DNA of 64,000 bases from Urechidicola sp. (GCA_965248525.1 CBDFJO010000003.1:41727-105726), one strand, 5' to 3'; counted from the first letter of the stretch, positions 25,275 through 59,357 are shown. A program made the numbers and translations. The notes: generated from the sequence alone by a model not told the origin.

Positions 25275-25327
25275 AACATATGGATAACCCTATTGTGGTT
25301 ATATTTTATATTCTTGTCAACGATTAC
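25275..25327 (-). other. attI-like head fused to IS1182 terminal remnant
   Basis: aac-atatggataaccctattgtggttatat then tattcttgt(g)caacgattac. Confidence 0.7.
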
Positions 25328-25600
25328 TTGTGTTAGCAAAAGTGCTTATAAATTACAATGTTCAGCTTTCTCTCTTTTTTCTTCTGTAAAACGAAAGGTA
25401 AATTCAAATTCTAGTTCACTGATTTCTTTTCTATTTTCATAGTTTTCAATTTCAGTTAAACCAAGTTCACACTCTGAATTATTACCATAAATAAAAACAC
25501 GACTACCACTAATCTCTACAAATGGATCATAATTATTTATTAAAGGTTTTTTACCGTATTCATAAGCATTAAATAAGCGATTTAAAATTATTTCGGATGT

Positions 25601-26623
25601 TTAAATACCTAAGCTATTAAACAACTCTTTTAATTCCTTCATAGAAGGCCTAGGCGCATTAGGAGTTATGATATTTCCTTTTGGATCGATTAAAATGAAT
25701 CTTGGAATCCCTTCTATCTTATAGTTTTTTATAAACTCAGATTTCCCTGCTTTGTCAGCTAATAATTGAATTCCCCCTAGTTTTTTTTCTTTAATCATCG
25801 TTTTCCATTTGTCATAATCTTTAGGTTTGTCTATAGAAAGACTTACAAACTCAATGTTTTTACCGTGGTAAGCTTTCTCTACTTCTTTTAAGTAAGGAAT
25901 TTCAGCTAGACAAGGACGGCACCAAGTAGCCCAAACATCAATATAGACATACTTTCCTTTTAAATCATCTAAAGAAGTCTTTCCACCAGCATTGTTTTCA
26001 TATGCTATAAATTTTGGAGAGGTTTTTCCTTTTCCTAAAGCAGTTTTTATGTAAGATGCCTTTTCTTGAAGACTTCCTAGATATTTCTTTAATCTGGCAA
26101 ATCCTAATTTCTCGTTTGCAACAAAAGCAGTATCTAAACCAGATACTCCATCAAGGTTTTTCATGAAATCACTTTCAACAGTTTCTAATTTTGCAACGAA
26201 ATTTTCTTTGCTCATCTCAAACATAGTTTTATTTGCAAGAAGAGCCTCTTGGTTTAATATTTTTTTAGCTAAATAGTTATTAGCCTCAGCACCACTTCCA
26301 GTATAAACAATAGTTTCATCAAACTGCTTCGTGTCTAAAGTTAAATGTACATCTTGACCATTTTTAAGGTAAAGATCAGTATCTTCTGTCCCATCGGATA
26401 ACCAAAAACCACCAGTTACTACTTTTAAAGTATCACTAAAAGCACCATCAGTAGCAACAGTAATTCGCTTTTTAAAGTTTCCGTCTGTATCTGATATGAC
26501 TAAGGAGTCAGAATTTTGATTTGTTATTTTTCCTGAAAACGTAACATAGTCCTTAGCCTCTTGTTTACAGGCAACTACTATTAAAGCAGCAATAGTCAAG
26601 TACATTAATTTTTTTATTTTCAT
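25601..26623 (-). CDS. TlpA-family thioredoxin-like lipoprotein, copy 1
   Basis: Lipobox VVAC; WATWCRPC; IPRFILIDPKG. Confidence 0.88.
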   Translation of the reverse strand: MKIKKLMYLTIAALIVVACKQEAKDYVTFSGKITNQNSDSLVISDTDGNFKKRITVATDGAFSDTLKVVTGGFWLSDGTEDTDLYLKNGQDVHLTLDTKQFDETIVYTGSGAEANNYLAKKILNQEALLANKTMFEMSKENFVAKLETVESDFMKNLDGVSGLDTAFVANEKLGFARLKKYLGSLQEKASYIKTALGKGKTSPKFIAYENNAGGKTSLDDLKGKYVYIDVWATWCRPCLAEIPYLKEVEKAYHGKNIEFVSLSIDKPKDYDKWKTMIKEKKLGGIQLLADKAGKSEFIKNYKIEGIPRFILIDPKGNIITPNAPRPSMKELKELFNSLGI

Positions 26624-26666
26624 AATTTTTTGTTTTAAAGGTTAATGTTCATTTTACATTTTTACT

Positions 26667-26720
26667 AACATATGTATAACCCTATTGTGGTTATATTTTA
26701 TATTCTTGTGCAACGATTAC
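26667..26720 (-). other. attI-like head fused to IS1182 terminal remnant
   Basis: aac-atatgtataaccctattgtggttatat then tattcttgtgcaacgattac. Confidence 0.7.
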
Positions 26721-26990
26721 TTGTGTTAGCAAAAGTGCTTATAAATTACAATGTTCAGCTTTCTCTCTTTTTTCTTCTGTAAAACGAAAGGTAAATTCAA
26801 ATTCTAGTTCACTGATTTCTTTTCTATTTTCATAGTTTTCAATTTCAGTTAAACCAAGTTCACACTCTGAATTATTACCATAAATAAAAACACGACTACC
26901 ACTAATCTCTACAAATGGATCATAATTATTTATTAAAGGTTTTTTACCGTATTCATAAGCATTAAATAAGCGATTTAAAATTATTTCGGA

Positions 26991-28013
26991 TTAAATACCT
27001 AAGCTATCAAACAACTCTTTTAATTCCTTCATAGAAGGCCTAGGCGCATTATGAGTTATGATATTTCCTTTTGGATCGATTAAAATGAATCTTGGAATCT
27101 CTTCTATCCTATAGTTTTTTAAAAACTCAGATTTCCCTGTTGTTGTTCTGTCAGCTAATAATTGAATTCCCCCTAGTTTTTTTTCTTTAATCATCGTTTT
27201 CCATTTGTCATGATCTTTAGGTTCGTCTATAGAAAGACTTACAAACTCAATGTTTTTACCGTGGTAAGCTTTCTCTACTTCTTTTAAGTAAGGAATTTCA
27301 GCTAGACAAGGACGGCACCAAGTAGCCCAAATATCAATATAGACATACTTTCCTTTTAAATCATCTAAAGAAGTCTTTCCACCAGCATTGTTTTCATATG
27401 CTATAAATTTTGGAGAGGGTTTTCCTTTTCCTAAAACAGTTTTTATGTAAGATGCCTTTTCTTGAAGAATTCCTAGAAATCTCTTTAATCCGACAAATCC
27501 TAATTTCTCGCTTGCAACAAAAGCAGTATCTAAACCAGATACTCCATCAAGGTTTTTCATAAAATCACTTTCAATAGTTTCTAATTTTGCATCGAAATCT
27601 TCTTTGCTCATCTCAAGCAGAGTTTTATTTGTAAAAAGATCTCCTTGGTTTAATACTTTTTTAGCTAAATAGTTATTAGCCTCAGCACCACTTCCAGTAT
27701 AAACAACAGTTTCATCAAACTGCTTCGTGTCTAAAGTTAAATGTACATCTTGACCATTTTTAAGGTAAAGATTAGTCTGTTCTTTCCCATCTTGTAACCA
27801 AAAACCACCAGTTACTACTTTTAAAGTATCACTAAAAGTACCATCAGCAGCAACAGTAATTCGCTTTTTAAAGGTTCCGAATCCTATGAGTAAGGAGTCA
27901 GAATTTTGATTTGTTATTTTTCCTGAAAACGTAACATAGTCCTTAGCCTCTTGTTTACAGGCAACTACTATTAAAGTAGCAATAGTCAAGTACATTAATT
28001 TTTTCATTTTCAT
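26991..28013 (-). CDS. TlpA-family thioredoxin-like lipoprotein, copy 2
   Basis: Paralog of 25601-26623; WATWCRPC. Confidence 0.88.
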   Translation of the reverse strand: MKMKKLMYLTIATLIVVACKQEAKDYVTFSGKITNQNSDSLLIGFGTFKKRITVAADGTFSDTLKVVTGGFWLQDGKEQTNLYLKNGQDVHLTLDTKQFDETVVYTGSGAEANNYLAKKVLNQGDLFTNKTLLEMSKEDFDAKLETIESDFMKNLDGVSGLDTAFVASEKLGFVGLKRFLGILQEKASYIKTVLGKGKPSPKFIAYENNAGGKTSLDDLKGKYVYIDIWATWCRPCLAEIPYLKEVEKAYHGKNIEFVSLSIDEPKDHDKWKTMIKEKKLGGIQLLADRTTTGKSEFLKNYRIEEIPRFILIDPKGNIITHNAPRPSMKELKELFDSLGI

Positions 28014-28078
28014 AATTTTTTGTTTTAAAGGTTTAAAGGTTAATGTTCAAAGGTTAATGTTCATTTTATATTTTTACT

Positions 28079-28127
28079 AACATACGTATAACCTATTGTG
28101 GTTATATTTTATACGTCCGCAAATGTA
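28079..28127 (-). promoter_or_regulatory. Array head: attI-like site with TAnnTTTG promoter box firing into the array
   Basis: Minus strand tacatttg (28120-28127) ... tataaccacaataggttata-cgtat-G|TTAGT. Confidence 0.68.
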
Positions 28128-28431
28128 CAATTAATTTCTATTAATTCAAGTACTGTTTAATTTATTTTTTAGATGTACAATTATATTACGAATAAGGCAA
28201 AAAATAGAAGCTTATTACAGGGCAAACTCACACTTTATATTTCAAGAAAGTTATCTTGCTGAATATAAAGAGGTTATTATTTTTCAAATTCTTGATTTTA
28301 GAAATCTTACATTTTTAACACATTAATTATCAGCAAAATTTAAAAAGGTATGAGTTTGCCCTGGGTTTATTATGATATGGCATATCTGTCTTTGCAAGAA
28401 GAACAAAGATATAATTTTAAAAACAACTTTT

Positions 28432-29094
28432 CTATTTTCTATTCTCAATAAACGTATCCATCTTTTCTTGAGGAATAAACCCTTTTGAAACAAGTGCCAA
28501 TCCTAATATTATTAATATAATTCCTATTCCTCGTTTTATTTTAAGGATTACGTTTGGTGTGAGTTTTTCCCGTAGTTGTTTTGCAAGGACGATTTTACCA
28601 ATATCAGTAATGAAATATGAAATAAGAATAGCGGCAAAAAACCAAAAAATTCGGAATTCATCCATATCGAGTGACGGACCAATCCCAACAATAAGCAATA
28701 GCCAAAAAGTAAGCACTCCAACATTGATAAAATTCAAGAAAAACCCTTTTATAAACAATCCAAAATAATTATTTTTTTTAGGGAGTTCATCGAGTTCTTT
28801 TATAGTAGTTTTTGTTACTTTTTTTTGAAGAAAAGTTCCTAATCCATAAACAAAAAGAATTCCGCCACCAATAAAAAAAAGGTTAGGATCATCTTTGATT
28901 TTTAGCAATATTTGATGACTTCCATAATAAGCAAATAAAATAAAAACAATATCGGCTAAAATAACTCCTAAATCAAATAGTATTGCAGCCCTTACACCTT
29001 TTAAGATACTTGTTTGAATAAGCACAAAAAAGACAGGTCCAATCATAAATGCGAGTCCGAAACCAATAGGAATTGCTTTGAGAATATCTTCCAT
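28432..29094 (-). CDS. LysE-family translocator
   Basis: GFGLAFMIGPVFF, KGFFLNFIN. Confidence 0.82.
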   Translation of the reverse strand: MEDILKAIPIGFGLAFMIGPVFFVLIQTSILKGVRAAILFDLGVILADIVFILFAYYGSHQILLKIKDDPNLFFIGGGILFVYGLGTFLQKKVTKTTIKELDELPKKNNYFGLFIKGFFLNFINVGVLTFWLLLIVGIGPSLDMDEFRIFWFFAAILISYFITDIGKIVLAKQLREKLTPNVILKIKRGIGIILIILGLALVSKGFIPQEKMDTFIENRK

Positions 29095-29100
29095 TATTTG

Positions 29101-30144
29101 TTATACATCATCAAAATCAATAGTAATTTTTGCGGTTGTTGGGTATGCTTGACATGCCAAAATCAATCCTTCTTCTAGTTCATCATCAGTTAAAATTTCG
29201 TTTTTCATCATTGTTGCCGCCCCTTCTGTAACACGACAGAGACAACTACTACAAACGCCTCCTTGACAAGAATATGGAGCATCCAAATTTTTATTTAAAG
29301 CAACTTCTAAAATGTTTTTCTTTTGCGACATTACAAAAGTCGTTTCATCTTCATCAAGCACAACTGTTATTTCGGTATTTCCTTCAAGAAGGTCAGTTTT
29401 TTCATCATTTTCATTATCTAAAGGTACAGAAAATAACTCATAATGTATATTTTCTTTACTGATATTGTTACTAATAAGCGTTTCAGTAACTTCTTTAATC
29501 ATACTTTCAGGACCACACAAAAAGGCTTCGTCAAAAGAAGTGTTTTTATACTTATTTTTTAGAAAATAATTTACATTTCCAGTATCACATCGACCAAAAA
29601 GTGTGTCATCAGCATTTTCTTGACTGTAGATATAATGAACATTTAAATTGCTATTGTTTTTTGCTAAAGCATCTAATTCTGACTTAAAAATAGTTTCTTT
29701 TGCTGATTTATTTCCGTAAATCAATGTAAAATTACAAGCGGTTTTTAAAGCAGATTTTAACATTGCCATTACAGGAGTTATTCCACTTCCTGCAGCAAAT
29801 GCAATATAGTTTTTATTTGGTTGAGGTTCTAAAATGAATCTCCCTTCAGGTTTGGAAACCTCTAAAATAGCACCTTCTTTTAAAATCGTTGTTGCATAGA
29901 TTGAAAATGCACCGTTTTTTACTGCTTTTACTGCAACCTTAAATTCGTTGTTATTTGGTTCAGAGCATATAGAATAGGCTCTTCGAACTTCTTTTCCATT
30001 CAGTGCTTTTTTGATAGTTATGTATTGTCCTGCAATAAATTTAAAATCTGATTTTAAATTTTCTGGGACATCAAACGTAATAGAAACAGCACTTTCAGTT
30101 TCTTTTTTGATGTTTTTTATAGTGAGTTTGTGAAATTGCGCCAT
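29101..30144 (-). CDS. Ferredoxin-NADP reductase-like flavoprotein with C-terminal 2Fe-2S domain (PaaE-like)
   Basis: RAYSICS, AAGSGITP, CGP, CQGGVCSSC. Confidence 0.88.
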   Translation of the reverse strand: MAQFHKLTIKNIKKETESAVSITFDVPENLKSDFKFIAGQYITIKKALNGKEVRRAYSICSEPNNNEFKVAVKAVKNGAFSIYATTILKEGAILEVSKPEGRFILEPQPNKNYIAFAAGSGITPVMAMLKSALKTACNFTLIYGNKSAKETIFKSELDALAKNNSNLNVHYIYSQENADDTLFGRCDTGNVNYFLKNKYKNTSFDEAFLCGPESMIKEVTETLISNNISKENIHYELFSVPLDNENDEKTDLLEGNTEITVVLDEDETTFVMSQKKNILEVALNKNLDAPYSCQGGVCSSCLCRVTEGAATMMKNEILTDDELEEGLILACQAYPTTAKITIDFDDV

Positions 30145-30246
30145 TAAAATATATATTTACACTGCAAAAGTAAGAAACGAATAATACAATTTTGTAACAA
30201 ATTCATAACTTTGCCTACTAATTAAAAGAAATTAACAACAACTAAG

Positions 30247-30723
30247 ATAATTAAACACTTTTTAAGCCTTGAATGGGAACAGTTTTTCCGTTCTGCACAT
30301 TGGCAAAAAAGCAGGTCTTATTAAAAACATCAATGCTTTAGAAATTCTAAAAGACAAAGCCTTGGATTGGTTGGAAATAATGGCACAGGAAAAACATTTT
30401 TTTAATTTACTATTAGATTTAACCCAACCAACAACAGGAACTATTACTTCAAACAACATTCAAGTTGATCTAAGTGAAGATTGGAAATCCAGAAGTGATA
30501 ATTTTAGATGAGCCTTTTGCAAATTTGGATTCAACAACACAAATTAGATTAAAAAAGATGCTAAAAGAATTGGTTGATAACAAAGATGTTACAGTACTGA
30601 TTTCAAGCCACGATTTAGGACATGTAACTGAAGTTTGTGAGCAGTATTGTTGTGCTTGACAAAGGATGTTGTTAAACATTTGAAGCAACTTTAAAAGAAT
30701 TGGAAGCACATTTTGCGTTGTAA
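30247..30723 (+). pseudogene. Deletion chimera: 5' end of a DUF5687-like membrane gene fused to pieces of an ABC ATPase
   Basis: IIKHFLSLEWEQFFRS, then GLVGNNG.GK Walker A, then a jump to GNPEVIILDEPFANLD...SSHDL; several frameshifts. Confidence 0.72.
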
Positions 30724-30840
30724 GAAACCTAATAAACCAGCAACAAAACAACATATTCTGAATTAATTTGTATTTTTACAGCCCTTTAACAATATATACA
30801 AGGGAATTTAGTTAAAAACGAATACAAATTATATTCAAAT

Positions 30841-33027: not shown

Positions 33028-33056
33028 GTAAACTAACCATAAATACCTTTATAATT

Positions 33057-33458
33057 ATGTTTTCAGAGAAAAAAAAGAATTCAAATCAAGTTTTAGAACG
33101 AAATATTATAGCAAAAAACACTTCAATTGTAGGAGATATAATTTCAGAAGGAGACTTTAGAATTGATGGAATCGTTGAAGGAACGATCAAAACAACAGGA
33201 AGAGTTGTTATTGGCAGTCAAGGCACCGTAAAAGGAACGATAGAATGCACAAATGCAGATATTGAAGGAATGTTTTCTGGAAAATTAGTTGTTAGCAAAT
33301 TATTATCTTTAAAAGCAACAGCTAAAATTGAAGGAGAAGTCTTTATAAACAAACTTTCGGTTGAGCTAAACGCAGCATTCAACGCAACATGTAATATGAA
33401 AACAGGCGTAAAAGAATTGAAGACTAATGGAAGAGCAAAAGCCGAAAAAACCGCTTAA
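33057..33458 (+). CDS. Bactofilin (polymer-forming cytoskeletal protein)
   Basis: GDIISEGDFRIDGIVEGTI beta-helix repeats. Confidence 0.85.
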   Translation: MFSEKKKNSNQVLERNIIAKNTSIVGDIISEGDFRIDGIVEGTIKTTGRVVIGSQGTVKGTIECTNADIEGMFSGKLVVSKLLSLKATAKIEGEVFINKLSVELNAAFNATCNMKTGVKELKTNGRAKAEKTA

Positions 33459-34054: not shown

Positions 34055-34123
34055 TTGTTTTCTGTTGTTTTTTATAATATCAAAATTACTGATAATTAGT
34101 GTTTTTTTTCATAATAAAATTAG

Positions 34124-40674: not shown

Positions 40675-41643
40675 ATGTTTTCATATTTTAAATCAAAAGA
40701 AAAAAATAGAAATGCTTTTACAATTGCATTTTATAACCTCGAAAATCTATTTGATACCGTTGATGACCCAAAAACGTTTGATGATGATTTTACTTCAGGC
40801 GGAAAATTGAAATGGAATAAAAAAAGATATTTTAAGAAAATTAGTAAGTTGAGCTATGTAATAAAACAATTGGGAACAGAAAAATCGTTTGTTCCTCCAG
40901 TACTTGTTGGTGTTGCAGAAGTTGAAAACAAAAAAGTTTTAGAAGATTTAGTTCGTTCTAAAAACCTACAAAAATTTCATTATAATTATGTGCATTATGA
41001 TTCTCTAGACGACAGAGGAATTGATGTAGGATTGCTATACAACAAGCAATTATTTGAGTTACTACATTCTGAACGATTCTCTCTGTATATAGAAAATGAA
41101 GAAGGTGAGCAAGACTTTACTCGTGATGTCTTATTAGTCAAAGGAAACTTTAATGGTGAATTGATGTATATACTTGTCAATCATTGGCCTTCGCGAAGAC
41201 AAGGTACGGAAGAGTCAGAATATAAACGTGTAAAAGCATCAGAATTAAATAGAGAAATTATTGATAAAATACGCCTTGAAGATGAAAAAGCAAAAATTGT
41301 TGTCATGGGTGATTTTAATGACAATCCAACAAATAAGAGCATTCAAAATCTAATCAAAGAGGACTTTTACAATCCTATGCAAAGTTTGCTTTCAAAAAGA
41401 AAAGGTACACTAAAGCATAAAGATGATTGGTACTTGTTTGACCAAATTATTTTTTCTAAAAACTTTATAGAAGTTAAAGAGCACCAACATTCGTTTAAAT
41501 ATGCCGAGGTTTTTGACCGTGATTTTCTAAAAGTTTTTAAAGGGAAAAACAAAGGGAAACCTTTTAGAACATTTATTGGACCTTGGTATCAAGGAGGTTT
41601 TAGCGATCATTTTCCTGTATATGTGTATTTGAAGAAAAATTAG
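40675..41643 (+). CDS. Endonuclease/exonuclease/phosphatase (EEP) family protein, no signal peptide
   Basis: FYNLENLFDT, NHWPSR, GDFND, SDHFP. Confidence 0.88.
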   Translation: MFSYFKSKEKNRNAFTIAFYNLENLFDTVDDPKTFDDDFTSGGKLKWNKKRYFKKISKLSYVIKQLGTEKSFVPPVLVGVAEVENKKVLEDLVRSKNLQKFHYNYVHYDSLDDRGIDVGLLYNKQLFELLHSERFSLYIENEEGEQDFTRDVLLVKGNFNGELMYILVNHWPSRRQGTEESEYKRVKASELNREIIDKIRLEDEKAKIVVMGDFNDNPTNKSIQNLIKEDFYNPMQSLLSKRKGTLKHKDDWYLFDQIIFSKNFIEVKEHQHSFKYAEVFDRDFLKVFKGKNKGKPFRTFIGPWYQGGFSDHFPVYVYLKKN

Positions 41644-46169: not shown

Positions 46170-47216
46170 ATGAAACATATTTCCCTTTTTGCCACAACTT
46201 TTTTTCTTGTCGGAAATATGACCTTTTCACAAGATAAAAACTACCAAATAAGAACACTTGCTTTTTATAACCTTGAGAATCTTTTTGATACGATTGACAA
46301 CACAGCAAAGAATGATGAGGCGAGTCCGATGATGGAGTTGAAGGGTAATAAGTCAAAAGTTTATTGGGATAAAATTGATAAACTTGGAAGTGTCCTTTCT
46401 AAAATAGGTGTTGAAAAAGCAAAGAACAGTCCTGCAATAATTGGAGTTGTAGAGATTGAAAATGATACAGTTTTAAGAGATCTGGTTGCTGGAAAGTTTC
46501 TAAAAGATAAGCGATACAGTATTATACATTATGAATCTCCAGACAAAAGGGGAATTGATGTAGGACTGTTATATCAGCCACGTTATTTTAAGCCTGTAAA
46601 TCATGAAAGCTTTGAATTATTGATTTATGATAATGAAGGAGAACGAATTTTCACAAGAGATCAACTATTAGTTTCAGGGTATTTAGATGGAGAAATGATA
46701 CACGTAATCGTTAATCATTGGCCATCAAAAAGAGGAGGAACAAGAAGCATCCCTTTTAGAGAAAAAGCTGCAGCATTGAATTTGAAAATCATAGAACAGA
46801 TTCGTGAAAACGAACCAAATGCTAAAATTATAACGATGGGAGATTTTAATGATGATCCTATTGAAAGCAGTTTTAAGAAAATAATGAAAACAAAGAAGAA
46901 AAAGAAGAATGTAAAAGAAAATGATATTTACAATCCTTTTGAAAACATGTTTATAAGAGGTTTTAATACCGCAGGTTATAGAGATAATATCAATCTGTTT
47001 GACCAAATCCTTATTAGTTCTCAATTATTAACAACGACCAAAGAATTTTCTACTTACAAAATGTTAAAAGCGGGAATTTACAATCCTAAATACTTAATAA
47101 ACAGCAAAGGAAGGTATAAGGGCTACCCTTTTAGAAGTTTTTCTTGGGGGATATACACAGGAGGTTATAGCGATCACTATCCTTCTTACATGTACCTTAT
47201 CAAAGAGAAAAAATAA
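46170..47216 (+). CDS. Secreted EEP-family nuclease/phosphatase
   Basis: Signal peptide; FYNLENLFDT, NHWPS, GDFND, SDHYP. Confidence 0.88.
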   Translation: MKHISLFATTFFLVGNMTFSQDKNYQIRTLAFYNLENLFDTIDNTAKNDEASPMMELKGNKSKVYWDKIDKLGSVLSKIGVEKAKNSPAIIGVVEIENDTVLRDLVAGKFLKDKRYSIIHYESPDKRGIDVGLLYQPRYFKPVNHESFELLIYDNEGERIFTRDQLLVSGYLDGEMIHVIVNHWPSKRGGTRSIPFREKAAALNLKIIEQIRENEPNAKIITMGDFNDDPIESSFKKIMKTKKKKKNVKENDIYNPFENMFIRGFNTAGYRDNINLFDQILISSQLLTTTKEFSTYKMLKAGIYNPKYLINSKGRYKGYPFRSFSWGIYTGGYSDHYPSYMYLIKEKK

Positions 47217-47287: not shown

Positions 47288-48328
47288 ATGAAACATTTTT
47301 TAAGTACGCTTGTAGTATTATTTTTCGTTTTATTTTCTTTTTCTCAACAAAAAGAATATAAAATTAAAACGATTGCTTTTTACAATCTCGAAAATTTATT
47401 TGACACGATTGATAATCCTGATAAAAAGGATGAATATAGTCCTATTCTTCAAATGAAGTCAGGAAAAGAGACTGCTTACACTCAAAAGAGCGATAATATG
47501 GCAAAGGTAATTTCTGAAATAGGAAAAGAGAAAACTAGGAAAAGCCCTTCAATTATTGGTGTTTGTGAAATTGAAAATAGTGATGTGCTTGATGATTTAT
47601 TGAAAAACAAGAATTTAAAAAATGAAGGTTACAACTATGTTCATGTTGATTCTCCAGATTGGCGGGGAATTGACGTTGCATTGATTTATAAAGAATCTGA
47701 TTTTAGTGTTTCAAATTTTAAAACATACGAACTCAAAGCATGGAATAGTGAAGGATACCGTGTTAAAACTCGCAGTCAATTATTGGTTTCAGGATATTTA
47801 GACGGCGAATTAATCCATATTATAGTTAATCATTGGCCATCACAACGTGGAGGCGCAAAAAAATCGGAATATTTAAGAGTAAAATCAGCAGAGTTAAACC
47901 TTAAAATTATTGAAGATATCTATTTTGAAGAGCCAAATGCTAAAATAATTACGCTAGGTGATTTTAATGACAATCCAGATGCAAAAAGCATCAAAAAAAC
48001 CTTAGATTCTAAAGAGAAAAAGATAAACGCAGGGAATTTATACAATCCTTTCGCGAATATGTATAAAAGAGGTTTTGGCTCGTTAGGTTTTCTTGACAAT
48101 ATGAATTTGTTTGATCAAATCTTATTTACATCTAATTTTTTATCAGAAGATGTTAGAGATTATGATTCGTATAAATTTTACAAAACAACTATTTTCAACC
48201 CAAATTATTTAACCACACGAAAAGGAAGGTATAAAGGCTATCCGTTTAGAAGCTGGTCAAACGGAAAATTTACGGGAGGATATAGCGATCATTATCCTGT
48301 TTATGTATATTTGATTAAAGAGAAGTAA
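47288..48328 (+). CDS. Secreted EEP-family nuclease/phosphatase (paralog)
   Basis: Signal peptide; same motifs. Confidence 0.88.
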   Translation: MKHFLSTLVVLFFVLFSFSQQKEYKIKTIAFYNLENLFDTIDNPDKKDEYSPILQMKSGKETAYTQKSDNMAKVISEIGKEKTRKSPSIIGVCEIENSDVLDDLLKNKNLKNEGYNYVHVDSPDWRGIDVALIYKESDFSVSNFKTYELKAWNSEGYRVKTRSQLLVSGYLDGELIHIIVNHWPSQRGGAKKSEYLRVKSAELNLKIIEDIYFEEPNAKIITLGDFNDNPDAKSIKKTLDSKEKKINAGNLYNPFANMYKRGFGSLGFLDNMNLFDQILFTSNFLSEDVRDYDSYKFYKTTIFNPNYLTTRKGRYKGYPFRSWSNGKFTGGYSDHYPVYVYLIKEK

Positions 48329-50457: not shown

Positions 50458-50519
50458 ATTTTTAGTATTTATTAAGTTTCAAATTTAAGCATTTCATATC
50501 AACTTCATTTTTTAATTTA

Positions 50520-50646
50520 ACTTAAGTTCAATTAGTAAATGCAACTTTTTAGGATACGGTCAGCGTATCTATTTTTATGAATATTGAAGTTCAAAAAAAG
50601 TATAAAAATTTGAGAGCTATTGTGTATTGTAGAATTTTATATTATC
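50520..50646. repeat. Conserved array-tail element, copy 2
   Basis: Homologous to 19903-20027. Confidence 0.75.
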
Positions 50647-50680
50647 CCCGGCCAAAAAGCGTTGTTGTCCCGCAGGGCAA

Positions 50681-51312: not shown

Positions 51313-51393
51313 AATTTTAAAATAGGGTTTCTCTAAAAAAATCGCTTAGGTCAACTTTTTTGGATTGATTTTATATTCTTGTGCAACGATTAC
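51312..51393 (+). mobile_element. IS1182-family right-end remnant (~80 bp)
   Basis: Near-identical to the end of 61721-63467. Confidence 0.88.
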
Positions 51394-51411
51394 CGGTGTT
51401 GGTGGCAGTAT

Positions 51412-52326: not shown

Positions 52327-52333
52327 AATTTAT

Positions 52334-52570
52334 TTAGCTAATCAATGTTGTTCCTCCAAGAGTTGGAATAGAAGTGTAATTATTATCATACATTGATAGC
52401 TTTTGGAAAAAATCACCATCGTTCGTCCATTCAGATTCTACTACAACAGACGTTTCAGAAGAACTGATGATTTCATTATATTCTTTCGTAAAATTCTGTT
52501 TATCAATTGATTCTACTTTTTTTGTTCCGTTTTCCATATCACAAATATACATTTTTTTAATTAAACGCAC
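52334..52570 (-). CDS. Small acidic hypothetical protein co-cassette with the peptidase
   Basis: 78-aa ORF ending 7 bp upstream of the peptidase, inside the same cassette ends. Confidence 0.5.
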   Translation of the reverse strand: MRLIKKMYICDMENGTKKVESIDKQNFTKEYNEIISSSETSVVVESEWTNDGDFFQKLSMYDNNYTSIPTLGGTTLIS

Positions 52571-52592
52571 GATTTTCGTTCATATTGCCACC

Positions 52593-52653
52593 AACATATG
52601 GATAAGTGCAGTAATTTTTCCTTCAGAAAAATTATTGTCATTTATCTGATGTT
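52593..52653 (-). other. attC-like site
   Basis: aac-atatg-gataagtgcagtaatttttc/gaaaaattattgtcatttatc-tgat-gtt. Confidence 0.72.
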
Positions 52654-53061
52654 GTGTTTAGTCTTTCTATTTTGCTTTTCTTATTATTTTCAAATATAAG
52701 CAAAATAGAAAGACGTAGTCCAAAAAATGAAGCAATAGTATCAAAGGAATTAACTATAAATTTGTTTGTAAATAAGATAGGTCATTATATTTGTATAATT
52801 AATGTCTTATTTGCAAAATTATAGAAAATTTAAATCGATTATTTTATTTTTTGCTTTAAAACTTGATTTTCTCAAAAAAAATCAGTTTCTTTACTTAAGT
52901 TTTATAACATTCACAATGTTTGAAAGAGCAATCTTTCACAGTGTAACTGTCAAACTTAATGTAGAATTTGTTTCTAAAAATTCTAAAGCAAAAAAATAAA
53001 ATTTTCCTGCTATAATTAAAATTTGTAGTTAGTTTCAAACTTCATTTTTGGATTAAATCAC

Positions 53062-53119
53062 AACGGTGAGTATATGCGTAGTGCGACCGTTTAGGGAGCA
53101 TTATCGCATATACATTGTT
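53062..53119 (-). other. attC-like site
   Basis: aac-ggtga-gtatatgcg...cgcatatac-att-gtt. Confidence 0.8.
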
Positions 53120-53138
53120 CTCTGCTGGCTTTCTTTCG

Positions 53139-53435
53139 TTATTTATTTTTATTCATAATCAGGGTTCCAATTAATACTATCGCCCAAATTACATCAATTA
53201 AATTCCATAATTCTCTACCGAGTGAAATCTTAACAATTGGGTTTATCAATATTGCACTACCGATATAAAATATTACCCAATTATTATTTTCCAATCCATA
53301 TTCTCTGAATGCCAAATATCCGAAACCTATCATTGCTAAAAATCTTACAATCTGAAAATAGCCATAAGGCATATCAGCCAAGCAAATCAGGAATAATACC
53401 GAAAGCACAATCTTTATTATTGTAGTTTCTTTCAT
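53139..53435 (-). CDS. DUF6804-like membrane protein
   Basis: CLADMPYGYFQIVRF...LINPIVKI. Confidence 0.65.
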   Translation of the reverse strand: MKETTIIKIVLSVLFLICLADMPYGYFQIVRFLAMIGFGYLAFREYGLENNNWVIFYIGSAILINPIVKISLGRELWNLIDVIWAIVLIGTLIMNKNK

Positions 53436-53788
53436 TGTATAGCAAGTCCAATTACCAAGGCAATAATTCCTGCAACAAAAGCAGTTAACATATCTTTACC
53501 AAGTCCTTTGCCACTCGCAAAACGAACTAAAAACCCTTTAGTTAGCCAAGGTCCTAAAATCCAAACAACTGCAAGGTTAATAAAGAACAATGCTATCCAA
53601 TGAAATTCGGTAATGTTCGCCCAAGCAATAACTGGAAAAATAAAACCACTAATCCAAGGAATTGCGGACATTAATGGATTTGAAGTATACATTGGTTTAT
53701 CAATTTCACTTCCATTCGAAATGGTTGAATGGATACCAAATGCAGAAATTAGCAATACTGCTCCAATAACTAATAATACTGTTGCCAT
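53432..53788 (-). CDS. Hypothetical membrane protein
   Basis: Three to four TM helices; overlaps the next gene by ATGA. Confidence 0.6.
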   Translation of the reverse strand: MATVLLVIGAVLLISAFGIHSTISNGSEIDKPMYTSNPLMSAIPWISGFIFPVIAWANITEFHWIALFFINLAVVWILGPWLTKGFLVRFASGKGLGKDMLTAFVAGIIALVIGLAIQ

Positions 53789-53801
53789 AATTTATTATCT
53801 T

Positions 53802-54224
53802 TTAAAATGCTCCTCCAATTGTGTTGTTTTTATGATTTTCTACGACTTGTGTCATCTCCATAATCATTCTATCAGCTATCTTTTGTTGTTCAAAAATGCT
53901 TAGGTTTCGGACATCGTTAAATTGTTTTTCGTGAACTACTTCTTTTTGAAAATATTTATAACGCCAAGTTATAGTCAAATGACCTGTTCCGTATTGAAAG
54001 TTAATTATCTGATTTTGTCCATTTTCATAAAGATTAAAACCTCTTTTGTCAAGAGTTGTAATACTTCCACCACCATTAAAGGCAGCGTCATTGATTGCTG
54101 CTACTATTACCGCAAATTTTTCATTTAAGTTTTGACCTTGAAGGTCGTAATTATCTTTATTCAAGTCAGAAAAGAACCTAAACAAGATAAAGCCAATAAT
54201 TCCAATTACAATTACCCAAATCAT
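53802..54224 (-). CDS. Hypothetical protein with N-terminal TM anchor
   Basis: MIWVIVIGIIGFILF; first gene after the cassette core. Confidence 0.6.
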   Translation of the reverse strand: MIWVIVIGIIGFILFRFFSDLNKDNYDLQGQNLNEKFAVIVAAINDAAFNGGGSITTLDKRGFNLYENGQNQIINFQYGTGHLTITWRYKYFQKEVVHEKQFNDVRNLSIFEQQKIADRMIMEMTQVVENHKNNTIGGAF

Positions 54225-54257
54225 ATGTTATTTGTTTTTTTGTTTTTGCTTGCAGAG

Positions 54258-54316
54258 AACGGTGAGTATATGAATCGTAGCATCCCGCAGGGTGCTATGA
54301 TTTCATATACATTGTT
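54258..54316 (-). other. attC-like site
   Basis: aac-ggtga-gtatatgaa-tcgtagcatccc/gggtgctatga-ttcatatac-att-gtt. Confidence 0.82.
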
Positions 54317-54326
54317 AGTGGTCGTG

Positions 54327-55427
54327 TTATATTTGCTCAAGTAGCTTTTTAGCTGTTATACATTTATGGACTCCGTTTTCGAATTTATGTCTTGTATCAA
54401 TTGGTGCTTCCGCAGCAAAAAAGCCATCGCAATAACCAAAATATTTACATGAAACACAATTCCATGCCATGCGTTCATTCGCATTATTTATTGAGTTCTG
54501 GCATTTTTCTGATTTTAAAAGGACTTCTAAGTTTTCATTGAATATATTCCCATAAACATATCTTTCATCACCATATGGGTCACCATATCCTTGACAGTTA
54601 CCATTAGTGTTAACTATTAGAACGGAAGGGAATTCTTTTTTGTTATAAAAATTATCTCTAACTAATGATTCTTTAAAGTTATAAGAAATGGCCTCTAATT
54701 TATTCAAAGGATCAATATCTATTTGTTTCCCATCTGCTTGCCAGAGTATATTTAACTCATTCAGAAATTGATATATTTGATTTGAGGTGATTTGGAATTC
54801 GTTATGTTGATCTTCAAATGCACCATCAAAAAGAGGTAATATCCTAAAGCTCGTATTAGTATCTTTGAAGAAATTGTATATTTCATTATGAAATTGAATG
54901 TTCTTCTTGGTCAACACTACTATACATCTAAATTCTATTTTCTCAATTTTCAACGTGTTCATGTTTTTTAAAACAAGTTGATCCATGATTTTCGAATTTA
55001 TGTTTTCCCTTAATTCACCAAATACGTCAAATGAAACTCCCAAATTAATTTTATTGTTTTTTAGAAACAAAAGAAGTTTATCATTTAATTTGGTCAAATT
55101 AGTCTGAATAGAATTACTTAATCTAATTCTTGAATTGAAATGTTTAGATTGTAATTTAAAGGCTGTTTCTAAATACTCAATTGGGCAAAGAAAAGGTTCT
55201 CCTCCATGCCATATAAAGTTAACTATAGTGCTTTTATTGTCCTGCTTGTCCCTTTTGGAAACAAATTGACTAACATTCTTATAAAGTAATTCCAAGTTAT
55301 CTAAACTTATTCTTTCTTTATCCCCTAATTCTTTAAATTCATAACAATATTTACATCTTAGATTACATAGTTTAGAAATTTTTACAACTAAATCTAATCT
55401 TCTTTGATTATTTTTTTCTTTTGTCAC
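54327..55427 (-). CDS. Radical SAM protein with SPASM/twitch-type C-terminus
   Basis: CNLRCKYC, WHGGEP, QTN, CVSCKYFGYC...C. Confidence 0.88.
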   Translation of the reverse strand: MTKEKNNQRRLDLVVKISKLCNLRCKYCYEFKELGDKERISLDNLELLYKNVSQFVSKRDKQDNKSTIVNFIWHGGEPFLCPIEYLETAFKLQSKHFNSRIRLSNSIQTNLTKLNDKLLLFLKNNKINLGVSFDVFGELRENINSKIMDQLVLKNMNTLKIEKIEFRCIVVLTKKNIQFHNEIYNFFKDTNTSFRILPLFDGAFEDQHNEFQITSNQIYQFLNELNILWQADGKQIDIDPLNKLEAISYNFKESLVRDNFYNKKEFPSVLIVNTNGNCQGYGDPYGDERYVYGNIFNENLEVLLKSEKCQNSINNANERMAWNCVSCKYFGYCDGFFAAEAPIDTRHKFENGVHKCITAKKLLEQI

Positions 55428-55728
55428 TCTTTGCTGATTTCATTGCAGAAATAAAGTCAAGTACATCCTTTGGATTCGGGTTTTTATGATTCAAAAATTG
55501 TAGGATTGGAATTTCGTAAAATGTTGATTCTGGCCAAGCCCAATAAAATGGATTTCCTATATTATCTCCAAGATTACCACTTTGACTTAAGAATTTTTTA
55601 AAATCCGAAATCGCTTTTTTTGTCTCATCAAGACTTTCTCCATTTTTTAAAGAAGCTTTAGCACTCGTATACAATTTTTCCGCTAATTCTGTTAGTTCTT
55701 CTAAATGTTTGTTGTTTGAATTTTCCAT
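55408..55728 (-). CDS. Hypothetical 106-aa protein, candidate substrate/precursor of the radical SAM enzyme
   Basis: Overlaps the rSAM start; aromatic-rich FYWAWPESTFY segment. Confidence 0.55.
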   Translation of the reverse strand: MENSNNKHLEELTELAEKLYTSAKASLKNGESLDETKKAISDFKKFLSQSGNLGDNIGNPFYWAWPESTFYEIPILQFLNHKNPNPKDVLDFISAMKSAKSDKRKK

Positions 55729-55779
55729 TGTTTAAATTTATAGTTTAAAAATAAGTATTTAATTTTTCTCATGACCACT

Positions 55780-55899
55780 AACGTTGCCTGTATGGTTAGT
55801 GGCGTTTTAAAATTACTGTACTTTCGGTTAAGCACAAACTTTGTTTTAAGTATTGAACTTTGAACTTAGCACTATGTAGCCATTAACTATACAGATTGT
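55780..55899 (-). other. Long attC-like site, split by the group II intron
   Basis: aac-gttgcc-tgtatggttagtggc...gccattaactataca-gatt-gt|t; homologous to 60766-60887. Confidence 0.82.
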
Positions 55900-56420
55900 G
55901 TGTGCCTTGAATGGTAAATATACTAAAAGTTCTTTAAAAAGAAGTATTTATTTAAGAGAAAGTCCAAAGGGTGTAAGTCCCTTATGCGCAGGAGTAACAT
56001 TTTGAAGCCAAGTAAGTCGCAAGGGTGCTAACTGCGAAGTTATATCTGAAGTAAGCGAGACTACGTTGTCTGAACTGACGAACAGAAACGGGATACGAGG
56101 CATAGTTATTTAGGATAAGTAAGCACACCATTGCAAAGTCCTACGAATACCAAAAGAATAACTATGTAGATTCCGCAGGCTTAGACAAAAGGACATTTAC
56201 CTTACCAAGGGAGGTCTCTGTAATCACGAGATGATATAGCAGAGAAGTCAGCAGAAGTCATAGTACTTGTAGGAAAACGAGCCATAAAACAAATGGAGGT
56301 CTCACAAGCAAGCAAGGACAGAACATTAAACGTTTGCGTGAATTTGAATTCATAGGTTAAACAACGTACAGTAGTATAGGGGACTTCTAAAATTTAATTC
56401 ATTGTTAATCAGATAATTAT

Positions 56421-57503
56421 ATGTATCTTTCGTACTATAATCAAAACTGTAATAAAATGTATAAACCCAGAGGGAAAAAAGGATTATTTGATGAAGAATT
56501 TACAAAAGATCGCTTATCATCAATAGGCAATCCATTAGAAAACATAAGTAAAGTTATTGATTTTGAATTATTTAGAGAATTGCTAGAGCATAAGTTACTC
56601 AACACTAACAAAAAAAGCAATGCAGGAGCAAAACCTTATGACTTGGTAATGATGTTTAAAATATTGATACTTCAACGTTATTATGGTTTAGGAGATAGTC
56701 AAGTTGAATATCAAATATTAGATAGAATGAGTTTTAAAACATTTTTAGGATTAGAGACTGGCGATAAAGTACCAGATGAAAAAACCGTATGGAGTTTTAG
56801 AGAACGTGTAACAAAAACAGGTTTAGTAGAAGAATTATTTGAGCAGTTTACTTTCTTTTTAGAAGAAAAAAAACTCATATTTAATGAAGGACAATTGATT
56901 GATGCCAGTTTTACAGTAGCACCACGCCAAAGAAACACAAGGAAAGAAAACAAGAAAATAAAAGACGGTAAGGGTAATGAATTATGGAATGACAAACCCA
57001 ACAAGAAAAAACATAAAGATATTGATGCACGTTGGACAAAGAAAAATGGTGAAACTTTCTTTGGTTATAAAAATCACGCAAAGGTAGGCACTAAAAGTAA
57101 ATTCATTAACACTTACACAGTAACAGACGCCTCGGTTCACGACTCACAAGCTTTGGATGACTTGCTTACCGAAAAAGATAAAAACCAAGATTTACACGCA
57201 GATAGTGCATACACAGGCAAAGAGCAAGATAAGATTATCAAAAAATATGAAATGAAAAATAAAGTACACGAAAAAGGCTATCATAATAAACCATTGACAG
57301 AGAAACAAAAAGCAAGCAACACTAAAAAATCAAAAATTAGAGCAAGAGTAGAGCATGTATTTGGCTTTATGGAGCAAAGTATGAAAGGTTTAGTTTTAAA
57401 ATCAGTAGGAATTATAAGAGCATCAGGAATAATTGGTTTAATCAACTTAACCTACAATTTATTTAGGTATGAACAAATCAAAAGATTAAACATAACTTAC
57501 TGA
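56421..57503 (+). CDS. IS5-family transposase
   Basis: PDEKTVWSFRE, IDASF, DIDARW, ADSAY, RARVEHVFG; likely start at MYKPRG. Confidence 0.9.
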   Translation: MYLSYYNQNCNKMYKPRGKKGLFDEEFTKDRLSSIGNPLENISKVIDFELFRELLEHKLLNTNKKSNAGAKPYDLVMMFKILILQRYYGLGDSQVEYQILDRMSFKTFLGLETGDKVPDEKTVWSFRERVTKTGLVEELFEQFTFFLEEKKLIFNEGQLIDASFTVAPRQRNTRKENKKIKDGKGNELWNDKPNKKKHKDIDARWTKKNGETFFGYKNHAKVGTKSKFINTYTVTDASVHDSQALDDLLTEKDKNQDLHADSAYTGKEQDKIIKKYEMKNKVHEKGYHNKPLTEKQKASNTKKSKIRARVEHVFGFMEQSMKGLVLKSVGIIRASGIIGLINLTYNLFRYEQIKRLNITY

Positions 57504-57574
57504 TAGACGGATAGATTGGATAGATGGATAGATGGATAGATGGATAGATGGATAGATGGATAGATGGATAGATG
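57502..57574 (+). repeat. 8-bp tandem repeat (GATAGATG) inside IS5
   Basis: 7 perfect copies at 57519-57574 plus 2 degenerate copies. Confidence 0.95.
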
Positions 57575-57756
57575 GAATTTGATGTTTTGTGTATCAAAAT
57601 CAAAAAATATTACTACCTTTGTAGTGTTAATCTTTTTTCTAAAAAAGATAAAAAAGGGTTCTCATCTTTTTTAGAAAACTGAAAAACCAATTTTTAGAAC
57701 TCCCCTATAGTTTAACTTAACGGACAGAGGAGCAATAACAAAGTAACAATTTAATT

Positions 57757-58156
57757 ATGGAATTAATAACAAAAGTTTTAGAGTATTCAAATATCAAGGC
57801 TCACTATTTTTGTACGTGGTTGGGTAAACTATTATAAGTATGCCAATATGACTACAAAGTTAAAATCGTTAGATACTTGGGTTCGTAGTAGGTTGCGTTA
57901 CTGCATTTGGAAACATTGGAAAAAGCCCAACAAACGTATGCGTAGTTATATCCGTTTGGGTATTGCTAAAGGTCAGGCTTATGCTTGGTCACGTTCACGG
58001 ATGGGTGGCTGGGCAACGGCATTAAGCCCAATAATGAAAACCACAATAACAGTCGAAAGACTATTAAAACGTGGTTATCTTTCTTTTTCTGCTCAATTTC
58101 AAATGTCGTTTAGGTTAATACCAAAAGACATTCAATTAAAATTATCTTTTGTTTAA
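57757..58156 (+). pseudogene. Intron-encoded protein with the RT domain deleted
   Basis: MELITKVLEYSNIKA N-terminus, then out-of-frame jump to RGWVNYY...RSRLRYCIWKHWKK (maturase X domain); no YADD. Confidence 0.82.
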
Positions 58157-58248
58157 TGAACCGCCAAGTACGAGAACCGTACGCTTGGTGGTGTGAGAGG
58201 CGCACTCTCCTCAAGATTGAGGAGAGCCGCCTACTCGATTAGCAAACG

Positions 58249-59286
58249 TTATTTTTTATTTTCTTCTATTATCTCTTTTCTTTTTTGAGATATTTCTAAA
58301 TTGTATTTCCACTTTTTATTGTAATCAACATTTTCTCTCATTTTTGCATACTCAATCGCTTTGTCATAATTACCAAGAGCATAATTCACTCCAGAAATAT
58401 TGCTCAATATACTCCAGTAAACCTTTTTTTGTTTTTTATCAGTTTTATCCTTTATTTTTTTTAGTTCGTTTTCAAAATGAGTTAAACTCTCTTTTGCAAT
58501 GCTCTTTAAGTTTTCTTTATAGGTATCGCTAAATTTCAATTTATTCATTTCGATTAATTTTTCAACTTGGTCATTGTTTTTTATTCCAAATTTTTCTTCC
58601 TTTTTAATAAAAAATAAATTTATTCTTTTGGCTTCATAATAAGTAGAAAATTTTGATTTTAAAGATTTAGAAATATCTCCTATTACATAATCTGCTTGGT
58701 TCATGTTTTTACTAGAACGATATTCAATTGCATTTGCATTATACTGCTTTTTGATTTGAGATAATGCTATTCCATTAGATTTTATGGATGCATTATTAAA
58801 AACTTCAGCACTTTCTGTTTTGCTTTTTTGTGTAAAAACTTTATCAAAAAGAATATTTTTTTTGGTGTCTGTTACTACGACCTTAATTGATGAAGATATT
58901 TCAACAATACCTGTATAAGTGTTTTTTGCATCTTTACCATAGTTTTTTTTCTCTTTTACACTTAATATGTGTTTTATACCTAAATCAGTTAATTCTATAA
59001 TGAAATCAGGATTTTCTGATTTTGTAAAACCAGGGATTTTTAATGAACGGTCAATAAGGATCGAAATATTTGTGTTCTTAAATGAAGAAGACTTTTGTTC
59101 TCCGTTTATTATTAATCTTACATTATCACTATTAGAATTTACTTTTACAGCGTAATTTTGATACTCAACAGGTAATTTAATTTCTGGGTAATGTTTTTCT
59201 TCAATATACCAACCTTTATTTTTTGCGTTTTGTGCTGATAAATTGATACTTACTAATGTTAATAGTAATAAAATGAATTTTTTCAT
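58249..59286 (-). CDS. Cassette-borne secreted hypothetical protein (C-terminal TPR-like)
   Basis: Signal peptide MKKFILLLL...SA; ends match gt|tagcaaac and gtttgctaac. Confidence 0.7.
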   Translation of the reverse strand: MKKFILLLLTLVSINLSAQNAKNKGWYIEEKHYPEIKLPVEYQNYAVKVNSNSDNVRLIINGEQKSSSFKNTNISILIDRSLKIPGFTKSENPDFIIELTDLGIKHILSVKEKKNYGKDAKNTYTGIVEISSSIKVVVTDTKKNILFDKVFTQKSKTESAEVFNNASIKSNGIALSQIKKQYNANAIEYRSSKNMNQADYVIGDISKSLKSKFSTYYEAKRINLFFIKKEEKFGIKNNDQVEKLIEMNKLKFSDTYKENLKSIAKESLTHFENELKKIKDKTDKKQKKVYWSILSNISGVNYALGNYDKAIEYAKMRENVDYNKKWKYNLEISQKRKEIIEENKK

Positions 59287-59308
59287 ATTTTTTGTTTTAA
59301 TGTTTGCT

Positions 59309-59357
59309 AACGTATGGATAACCCTATTGTGGTTATATCTTATATGTCTGCAAGTTA
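59309..59357 (-). promoter_or_regulatory. Array head: attI-like site with degenerate promoter box
   Basis: Minus strand taacttg...ataaccacaatagggttatccatac-G|TTAGC; matches 28079, 26667 and 25275. Confidence 0.65.

Follow-up and report, generated by a model that had tools for sequence, protein, structure and literature searches.

A probable attI-like head of integron-like cassette arrays in Urechidicola and other Flavobacteriaceae

Classical integrons and the Urechidicola locus

Integrons are the textbook case of gene capture by bacteria, and their defining feature is an integrase in which a special domain deals with folded attC DNA. The classical attC site is recombined as a folded single strand, which is recognised via extrahelical bases, and the IntI-specific domain is thought to be needed for this reaction. 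The IS1111-attC insertion sequences (ISs) and the group IIC-attC introns insert into attC sites at a fixed position and in a fixed orientation. Here we analysed a stretch of 64,000 nucleotides (nt) from Urechidicola sp. (GCA_965248525.1 CBDFJO010000003.1:41727-105726; hereafter the window), which carries several minus-strand copies of a short motif, termed the head, in front of different genes. Judged from sequence comparison, the head is very probably the recombinase-proximal attachment site, functionally an attI, of an integron-like cassette platform in the Flavobacteriaceae. This platform is widespread in marine members of the family and is run by a recombinase other than the classical integron integrase.

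The platform shares with the classical integrons (class 1 and the chromosomal integron of Vibrio cholerae) a unique recombinase-proximal entry site with the crossover at G|TT, and imperfect palindromes with xxxxAAC and GTTxxxx cores, in which the R' and R'' boxes of one cassette are complementary to each other. The cassettes likewise hold mostly small open reading frames (ORFs) on the same strand, e.g., glyoxalase, GNAT and defence-like genes, with functions that are mixed or unknown, and the arrays are colonised by an attC-targeting IS and a group II intron. In contrast to the classical systems, the recombinase lacks the inserted IntI-specific domain and possesses an extra N-terminal domain of ~90 amino acids (aa). 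Its gene lies upstream of the array and co-directional with it and carries the head at its 3' end, whereas the classical attI is located upstream of a divergent intI. In addition, the head is a covarying stem-loop without an L box, the crossover lies 6 nt beyond its stem, and a divergent zinc-ribbon-like gene accompanies the recombinase. With regard to the classical definition, cassettes separated by attC-like sites with R'/R'' complementarity were found, but no IntI-type recombinase with the additional domain; with regard to that of attI, adjacency to the recombinase gene and the G|TT junction are present, in an orientation opposite to the definition. The system is an integron-like variant and not a classical integron.

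Surveys show integrons to be nearly absent from the Bacteroidota, with next to none in the Flavobacteriaceae. Within the Bacteroidetes, IntegronFinder 2.0 reported only In0 elements and one complete integron, in Salinibacter (PMC9024848), and reviews name the Bacteroidota among the phyla with integrons without giving detail (PMC8618304). No description of an integron-like platform in Flavobacteriaceae or Bacteroidota was found in the literature searched, a collection that is incomplete, so that an earlier description is possible. If our reading is true, the known range of integron-like systems would be extended to a major group of marine bacteria, and the platform would allow two questions to be addressed in a natural system, namely whether attC-type recombination requires the IntI domain and how integrons arose from Xer-like enzymes (cf. 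PMC4792948). A large unannotated cassette pool, including defence-like genes, would also come into view.

The head and its recombinase gene

The exact 13-mer ATAACCACAATAG occurs four times in the window, always on the minus strand (25290-25302, 26682-26694, 28093-28105 and 59324-59336), and ten times if up to two mismatches are allowed, compared to 2.76 expected matches; no shuffle reached ten. The complete motif reads ATATAACC-ACAATA(G)-GGTTAT(A/C)C(A/G)TA(T/C)G, and its 3' part TTATMCRTAYGTT is found in five exact copies (seven with up to one mismatch against 0.99 expected, a number that again no shuffle reached). The additional exact match belongs to a fifth, truncated head, TTATCCATATG|TTGGTGGCA, which the original prediction did not contain. 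In every copy the conservation ends at G|TT, followed by TTAGT (28.1 and 26.7 kb), TTGTA (25.3 kb) or TTAGC (59.3 kb); these sequences and the sharp boundary read as had been described. The accompanying claim that the motif has no upstream AAC core had to be corrected, as the left arm contains AAC (ATATAAC|C). The copies and the associated gene remnant are the following:

28081-28127, minus strand: head 28.1, box TACATTTG at 28120-28127, arms ATAACC at 28100-28105 and GGTTAT at 28088-28093, junction G at 28081
26669-26702, minus strand: head 26.7, TATAAAATATAACCACAATAGGGTTATACATATG, junction G at 26669, fused upstream to 26 nt of an IS end (26695-26720) with the overlap TATAAAAT
25277-25310, minus strand: head 25.3, junction G at 25277, fused upstream to the IS end (25303-25327) with one base deleted
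59311-59357, minus strand: head 59.3, TAACTTG at 59351-59357, arms at 59331-59336 and 59318-59323, junction G at 59311
52595-52605, minus strand: truncated head 52.6, TTATCCATATG, junction G at 52595, followed by an SDH-type protease cassette
59358-59395, minus strand: remnant of a recombinase gene, last codons ..NISSPLDELKK*, directly upstream of head 59.3

All five copies have the same orientation, and an invertible promoter or shufflon was rejected on these grounds. The heads belong to two minus-strand arrays, array A from 28.1 to ~20.0 kb and array B from at least 63.5 to ~50.6 kb, between which the core genes for LysE, the ATP synthase operon, RecJ and OsmC are located. That both head 28.1 and head 59.3 border core genes, as had been proposed, holds for the former, which is the first site of array A with LysE ~350 nt upstream, but not for the latter, which lies inside array B behind the recombinase remnant. 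The remnant was identified by tblastn (10 codons, 90% identical) and blastn (95 nt, 80% identical to locus L011); only ~40 nt of the 3' end are kept, and the rest of the gene is absent upstream of head 59.3. As tblastn revealed no recombinase gene in the 64-kb window apart from this 3'-end remnant, the window heads are orphans. Between the ORF6N/HTH (helix-turn-helix) cassette genes and the remnant, a plus-strand ORF (59498-59818) resembles, by eye, the N-terminal part of an AhpD/carboxymuconolactone-decarboxylase-like protein and marks the place of the recombinase gene loss.

Intact platforms were found in related bacteria. When one genome per species was scanned with the head motif, most matches were due to chance, and three loci came from a single Flavobacteriaceae metagenome-assembled genome, UBA2765; here, the motif stands 25 nt past the stop codon of a 364-aa tyrosine recombinase. 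In related Flavobacteriaceae this recombinase is conserved (365 aa) with the head directly after its stop codon. It is 65-82% identical across genera, e.g., Aureibaculum, Algibacter, Lacinutrix, Polaribacter and Galbibacter, and has 5971 homologous proteins at E <= 1e-20; existing annotation of the family is limited to XerD or tyrosine recombinase. Family-wide tests were carried out on 80 metagenomic recombinase loci with 54-100% identity and on additional genome loci. In each locus examined, the recombinase gene runs in the same direction as the array and carries the head at its 3' end, and nearly all loci show the same layout of stop codon, TAnnTT(G/A), 12-13 nt, stem-loop, 6 nt and G|TT, after which the sequences diverge (five loci had no clear junction by the search pattern).

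The cassette ends were analysed in the 32 loci that had sufficient DNA downstream. In 27 of these, the opening 9-mer of the first cassette recurred within 6 kb as its exact reverse complement, compared to 15 of 160 control 9-mers, and the recurring ends were followed by A(A/C)(C/T)G and TGTAT-type half-sites. Furthermore, 14 heads were each found, identical over 46 nt, in more than one contig, and nine of them are followed by different DNA after G|TT; the first cassette is, thus, replaced at the level of strains. The original prediction had called for a strain comparison that looks for new cassettes next to the head, and relatives provided the expected outcome; exact-protein look-ups of the window proteins gave no match. 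Several metagenomic contigs stop 40-200 nt past the head, which suggests that assemblies break at variable arrays. With recombinase adjacency, divergence at G|TT and the two counts above, the proposed equivalence of the motif to attI is strongly supported; the proposed equivalence to a cassette promoter (Pc) is taken up below and is only plausible.

Single loci illustrate the same architecture. In Aureibaculum conchae (L057), the recombinase gene is followed by ATATAACCGCAATGCGGTTATACAGTTG|TTGGCAAC and an array of eight co-directional small ORFs (glyoxalase, GNAT, RidA and unknowns) with attC-like sites of 120-220 nt between them, and at all 8 junctions the G|TTnnnnnn start reappears as exact reverse complement at the next site. 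The head of A. algae (L058), CTTGCAGACATATACGATATAACCACAATAGGGTTATACATATG|TT, is near-identical to the window heads, and the R'/R'' rule holds there as well; Algibacter has the same layout with defence-like cassettes. Orphan heads are recurrent and not peculiar to the window, since UBA2765 also carries them (L013 and L036), each with decayed ~40-45 nt of the recombinase 3' end, and one of these heads is followed by a cassette that obeys the R'/R'' rule (start GTTAGCACCA, end TGGTGCTAAC).

Across the heads, stems of 6-15 bp enclose loops of 3-25 nt, and the inner stem bases covary (TATAACTGC/GCAGTTATA, TATAAGTGC/GCACTTATA, TATATGCG/CGCATATA, AATATCGGC/GTCGATATT); RNAalifold applied to 22 short-loop heads gave 7 pairs, 4 of them with compensatory changes. 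Arm covariation and variable loop length speak for folding of the head. As the distance from the recombinase stop codon to the stem is always 12-25 nt and strand exchange occurs 6 nt outside the stem and not within it, the stem-loop could represent only a 3' end signal of the recombinase gene, i.e., a terminator or stabiliser that is passively carried, with a short GTT box as the true site. This appears improbable: no T-run follows the stem, and its spacing to the junction is fixed, with the 3' arm ending at -6 relative to the junction G in most of 59 unique heads that were tested. The stem is also kept in at least five orphan heads without the gene (window; UBA2765 L013 and L036), and the truncated head with the 3' arm alone still marks a cassette boundary.

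The recombinase was compared with the two best-described groups of related enzymes. Its best match is archaeal XerA (PDB 4a8e, E = 1e-33; NF040815 with 180-190 bits at a cut-off of 220), and the second-best matches in PDB and NCBIfam are integron integrases (VchIntIA, 2a3v, E = 9e-26; TIGR02249 with 174-177 bits at a cut-off of 265); the PRK15417 score is 110-117 at a cut-off of 435. The alignment with VchIntIA falls into two stretches and skips IntI residues ~213-245, which constitute the IntI-specific domain. A C-terminal SPLD motif is common to the recombinase and the integron integrases, and the extra N-terminal domain may read a conserved TTGCAGACATAA region. The AlphaFold model is mediocre (pLDDT 71, pTM 0.44), and the fold search only confirmed the ranking obtained from the sequences. 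The Xer recombinases (XerA, XerC/D) are the best sequence and fold matches; in contrast to these, the enzyme scores below the XerA cut-off, its sites are not 11-6-11 dif-like cores, and its gene is tied to variable cassette arrays and not to chromosome dimer resolution. Because the alignment skips the IntI-specific domain and the scores remain below the cut-offs, the predicted recombinase is not an integron integrase by the usual definition, though the system would work like an integron.

Directly upstream of the recombinase gene, 75 of ~83 loci possess a divergent ORF of ~115 aa (e.g., L055 9482-9847, L057 9504-9848 and L059 9495-9845). Its product, MKCKICKK..CKNYYH..YVYDFAWMEFSDDEILI, has an N-terminal CxxC...CxxxxH zinc-ribbon-like motif and the C-terminal YVYDFAWMEFSDDEILI. 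The protein has no match in Pfam or NCBIfam and no homologue in the window; it may be an accessory factor or regulator.

Cassettes and attC-like sites in the window

Behind all five window heads, the cassette starts with G|TTnnnnnn and has the reverse complement at its far end. The cassettes and attC-like sites are:

26725-28080, minus strand: TlpA/redoxin lipoprotein cassette 1, ORF 26991-28013, start TTAGTAAAA, R'' box TTTTGCTAAC at 26725-26734
25332-26668, minus strand: TlpA cassette 2, tandem paralogue, ORF 25601-26623, R'' box at 25332-25341
21021-25276, minus strand: multi-gene cassette of 4.26 kb behind head 25.3, start TTGTAACC, end GGTTACAAC at 21021-21029, match 9/9
58240-59310, minus strand: cassette behind head 59.3, 345-aa secreted protein, ORF 58249-59286, start TTAGCAAAC
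55780-55899, minus strand: remainder of the attC-like site of the 59.3 cassette, AC AATC TGTATAG...CCATACAGGCAACG|TT
60766-60895, minus strand: attC-like site, GGGCTTGTAAC AATC TGTATAG ... CCATACAGAAATCG|TT, closing an outer membrane protein (OMP) beta-barrel cassette (60998-61621), fold z = -2.85
54258-54323, minus strand: short attC-like site closing a radical-SAM cassette, start GTTAGTGGTC, end GACCACTAAC, fold z = -4.1
53062-53125, minus strand: short attC-like site closing a three-ORF cassette, start GTTCTCTGCAA, end TTGCAGAGAAC, fold z = -3.0
20025-20154, minus strand: last attC-like site of array A, GTTTGCTAAC AACG TATAAG ... CTTATAC AAAACC G|AT

The start and end of the TlpA cassette are complementary at 9 of 10 positions plus one G-T pair. 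The protease cassette behind the truncated head begins with G|TTGGTGGCA, and its start GTTGGTGGCA matches its end TGCCACCAAC (51398-51407) in 10/10 positions. The R'' box of the 59.3 cassette, GTTTGCTA|AC, is split by the group II intron; in silico removal of the intron restored GTTTGCTAAC AATC TGTATAG with a 10/10 match to the cassette start. Across 53-63.5 kb, the minus strand contains imperfect palindromes of the form xxxxAAC-N4-TGTATA ... CATACA-N6-G|TTxxxx, and R'/R'' complementarity holds at the sites at 60.8, 55.8, 54.3 and 53.1 kb. Single-strand folding of the window attC-like sites is strong (z = -2.7 to -4.1). General searches were less informative: a naive search that paired GTTnnnnnnn with its reverse complement, 1 mismatch allowed, was far too noisy over the whole window in this AT-rich DNA, a rule-based attC scanner recovered the three intact sites at a background equal to shuffled counts, nhmmer profiles of attC half-sites matched only the strongest sites, and no Rfam family matched the head or the attC-like sites.

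The two paralogous 340-aa TlpA/redoxin lipoprotein genes form a tandem with a unit length of ~1392-1412 bp, which head 25.3 closes. In locus L143, TlpA (82% identical) is an ordinary cassette within an array, preceded by a normal attC-like site, ..CCATAGCCAAAACCG|TTAGCAAAAATGTAAAATGAACAT, and followed by the intact site TTTTGCTAAC ACAA TATATAAAAAATAG...GATATACAAAACG|TT. Since it occupies different contexts in different genomes, the compared sequences provide direct evidence that the TlpA cassette moves. The paralogues are separated by an indel near residues 43-50, and the leader of cassette 1 (28030-28060, minus strand) carries a short tandem duplication, GAACATTAACCTTT x2, which cassette 2 does not have.

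The 4.26-kb cassette contains an ABC transporter operon, consisting of an ABC ATPase (24173-24874) and two ABC-2/DUF3526 permeases, as well as a small MerC-like ORF and Fur-like pseudogene remnants; its end is followed by ACGG and an IS-end remnant. The frameshifted remnants of the Fur-family regulator (..GCSANHHSDKHPHFQCTKCDKVECL..; 24951-25215, plus strand) lie antisense at the start of the cassette. The secreted protein of the 59.3 cassette has no Pfam match.

The head, a palindrome whose arms measure 6-7 bp, follows closely after a -7-type box, lies 40-65 nt upstream of the ATG of lipoprotein and secreted-protein genes, and covaries in its arms in a way compatible with an RNA hairpin. It could, therefore, also be a cis-regulatory element, either a dimeric transcription factor operator or a 5'-leader RNA hairpin, of a regulon for secreted and envelope proteins, and the G|TT boundary would then be incidental. 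However, we regard this as highly improbable: in ~80 loci the motif follows one recombinase gene and no functional gene class, the downstream genes are unrelated to one another, copy 25.3 is followed by antisense pseudogene DNA, R'/R'' complementarity has no regulatory explanation, and Rfam yielded no match. For the same reasons, a Fur/Zur-type operator, which the Fur-like remnant next to copy 25.3 had suggested, was rejected.

In Bacteroidota, the promoters of sigma-A consist of a -33 TTTG and a -7 TAnnTTTG element. The original prediction had placed a TAnnTTTG-type box or TAACTTG about 40 bp upstream of heads 28.1 and 59.3, and both boxes were located 38-39 nt upstream of the junctions. Head 28.1 has the perfect TACATTTG and a -33-like TTG 19 nt further upstream (28147-28149); TAACTTG at head 59.3 is one T short, with TTTG 17 nt upstream, and heads 26.7 and 25.3 have no promoter within the 25-26 nt of IS end that precede them. 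In the family, the TAnnTT(T)G-like element is conserved at a fixed spacing 12-13 nt upstream of the stem. The distance is also fixed where the element is non-coding (the stop codon lies upstream of it in L056, L057 and L060) and in orphan heads, which indicates that selection acts on the DNA itself. A -7-type promoter would be the simplest reading of the element, making a role as Pc plausible; alternatively, it could be a binding site of the recombinase.

Mobile elements, probable head amplification and proposed mechanism

Two mobile elements reside in attC-like sites of array B:

61721-63467, plus strand: IS1182-family IS, transposase 61817-63388 (Pfam DUF772 and DDE_Tnp_1_6), target-site duplication AATG
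55900-58239, plus strand: group II intron, 5' end GTGTG, Rfam RF02001 with 108 bits and RF01998 (D1-D4), lying antisense within the R'' box of the attC-like site that closes the 59.3 cassette

The IS lies within an attC-like site 4 nt after R'' (..AAC box + 4 nt), the halves of which are found at 63468-63478 and 61665-61720. The same position is occupied in A. algae (L058 17140-18900) and in L062 (~8130), and the element invariably runs antisense to the cassettes. Both complete copies are flanked by a 4-bp target duplication (AATG in the window, ACCG in A. algae), and the L062 contig contains one end only. Remnants of IS ends with R''-type flanks occur in the window at 20808-21016 and ~51314-51393, and 25-26 nt are also present in both TlpA tails. 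As the R''+4 position recurs in A. algae and L062 and the remnants have R''-type flanks, the element is an attC-targeting IS. In this, the IS and the intron resemble the IS1111-attC elements and group IIC-attC introns with respect to fixed position and orientation; in contrast to the IS1111-attC elements, which are IS110/IS1111, the IS belongs to the IS1182 family. The intron itself is interrupted by a further IS (DDE_Tnp_1 transposase, 56421-57503), and after this IS an 8-nt repeat, TGGATAGA, is arranged in tandem (57509-57584).

A repeat search revealed that the sequence directly before heads 26.7 and 25.3, GTAATCGTTG(C)ACAAGAATATAAAAT, is identical to the end of the IS1182-family element, a feature that the original prediction had not included. 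The junction between IS end and head falls into the 8-nt TATAAAAT, which is common to both. These two fusions, and the resemblance of the IS end to the region upstream of the head (TTGCA...TATAAAAT), could mean that the motif is a sub-terminal part of an IS or of a miniature inverted-repeat transposable element (MITE) whose copies were spread by transposition. We find this hardly credible: the ends of the complete IS copies in the window and in A. algae are defined and flanked by 4-bp duplications, the motif is contained in neither copy, the IS end is absent at heads 28.1 and 59.3 and at all heads in relatives, and an inverted partner end does not exist. An IS terminal repeat or MITE terminus was likewise rejected, since the motif is in no complete IS copy, and a simple tandem duplication plus chance was rejected on the grounds given against the other readings.

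With the head as attachment site, the fused copies can be explained as amplification products. In the window, the IS inserted into the attC-like site of TlpA exactly after ACAA, and unequal recombination at the TATAAAAT microhomology with the region upstream of the head could then have amplified a unit of head, TlpA and IS end, giving rise to heads 26.7 and 25.3. A later exchange between head and attC would have placed the 4.26-kb cassette behind the third head, which fits the different cassette found there. Delta-attI-type cassettes are known from class 1 and 2 integrons; they have a full or truncated attI as their downstream end and stay recombination-competent (PMC12901181), and recombination between two attI sites is efficient for IntI1 (PMC4792948). 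In their layout, the TlpA units and the 11-nt head at 52.6 kb resemble these, with a full or truncated head downstream instead of attC; in contrast to the delta-attI type, the downstream heads here are joined via an IS-end fragment at the 8-nt microhomology. Because of this manner of joining, their sequences point to illegitimate or homologous recombination and not to integrase action as the probable origin of the IS-fused heads.

Intact platforms have the order of divergent zinc-ribbon-like gene, 365-aa XerA/IntI-related recombinase gene, TAnnTT(T)G overlapping or just after the stop codon, and, 12-13 nt on, the stem-loop (TATAAC..CAAT..GTTATA), 6 nt, G|TT and co-directional cassettes that each end in an attC-like imperfect palindrome. 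The recombinase would cut the head 6 nt beyond the 3' arm of its stem, between G and TT, and an equivalent G|TT cut at the 3' end of the attC-like site of a circular cassette would lead to insertion at the head, where the cassette may be transcribed from the upstream -7-type promoter. Head and attC may be used as folded strand or as duplex DNA. The platform reading would account for the two variable regions, the TlpA tandem amplification and the targeting by IS and group II intron in the window.

Several observations weigh against this reading or parts of it. When folded as single strands, the window heads form only weak stems (-3.1 to -3.7 kcal/mol; z = 0 to -2.2, not significant), and covariation of the palindrome can equally fit co-evolving binding by a dimer. 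Strict TAnnTTTG scoring upstream of the heads gave no enrichment over shuffles. Synteny with the closest available genomes (LysE 82-87% identical) covers the stretch between 37.5 kb and the LysE stop codon and breaks off at the latter, and the nearest relatives with the LysE locus have a peptidase gene and no head at that position; judged by this comparison, head 28.1 is not at a conserved platform position. Finally, as no recombinase is encoded in the window, its heads may no longer be active.

The chances seem evenly balanced that the platform as a whole combines head duplication and survival of orphan heads as insertion and expression points with an XerA/IntI-related enzyme without the IntI-specific domain, an attI formed by a 3'-end stem-loop, a zinc-ribbon partner and thousands of homologues, typically one per genome, and that it constitutes an independent invention or an early integron branch so far undescribed in the literature searched.

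Both array ends share a distal flank of ~130 nt just before the core genes (19892-20022 and 50509-50640, 81-91% identical), which may be the original downstream flank of the platform. The flank contains a TACATTTG/TGCATTTA-type box, and a partial inverted copy is present at ~20790-20830. The syntenic relatives lack the 350 nt that separate LysE from head 28.1; within this stretch, a 13-bp inverted repeat, CAGGGCAAACTCA / TGAGTTTGCCCTG (~28215-28227 and ~28355-28367), encloses ~130 nt. In the core region, the plus strand encodes three paralogous genes of ~320-350 aa with repeated segments (40675-41643, 46170-47216 and 47288-48328).

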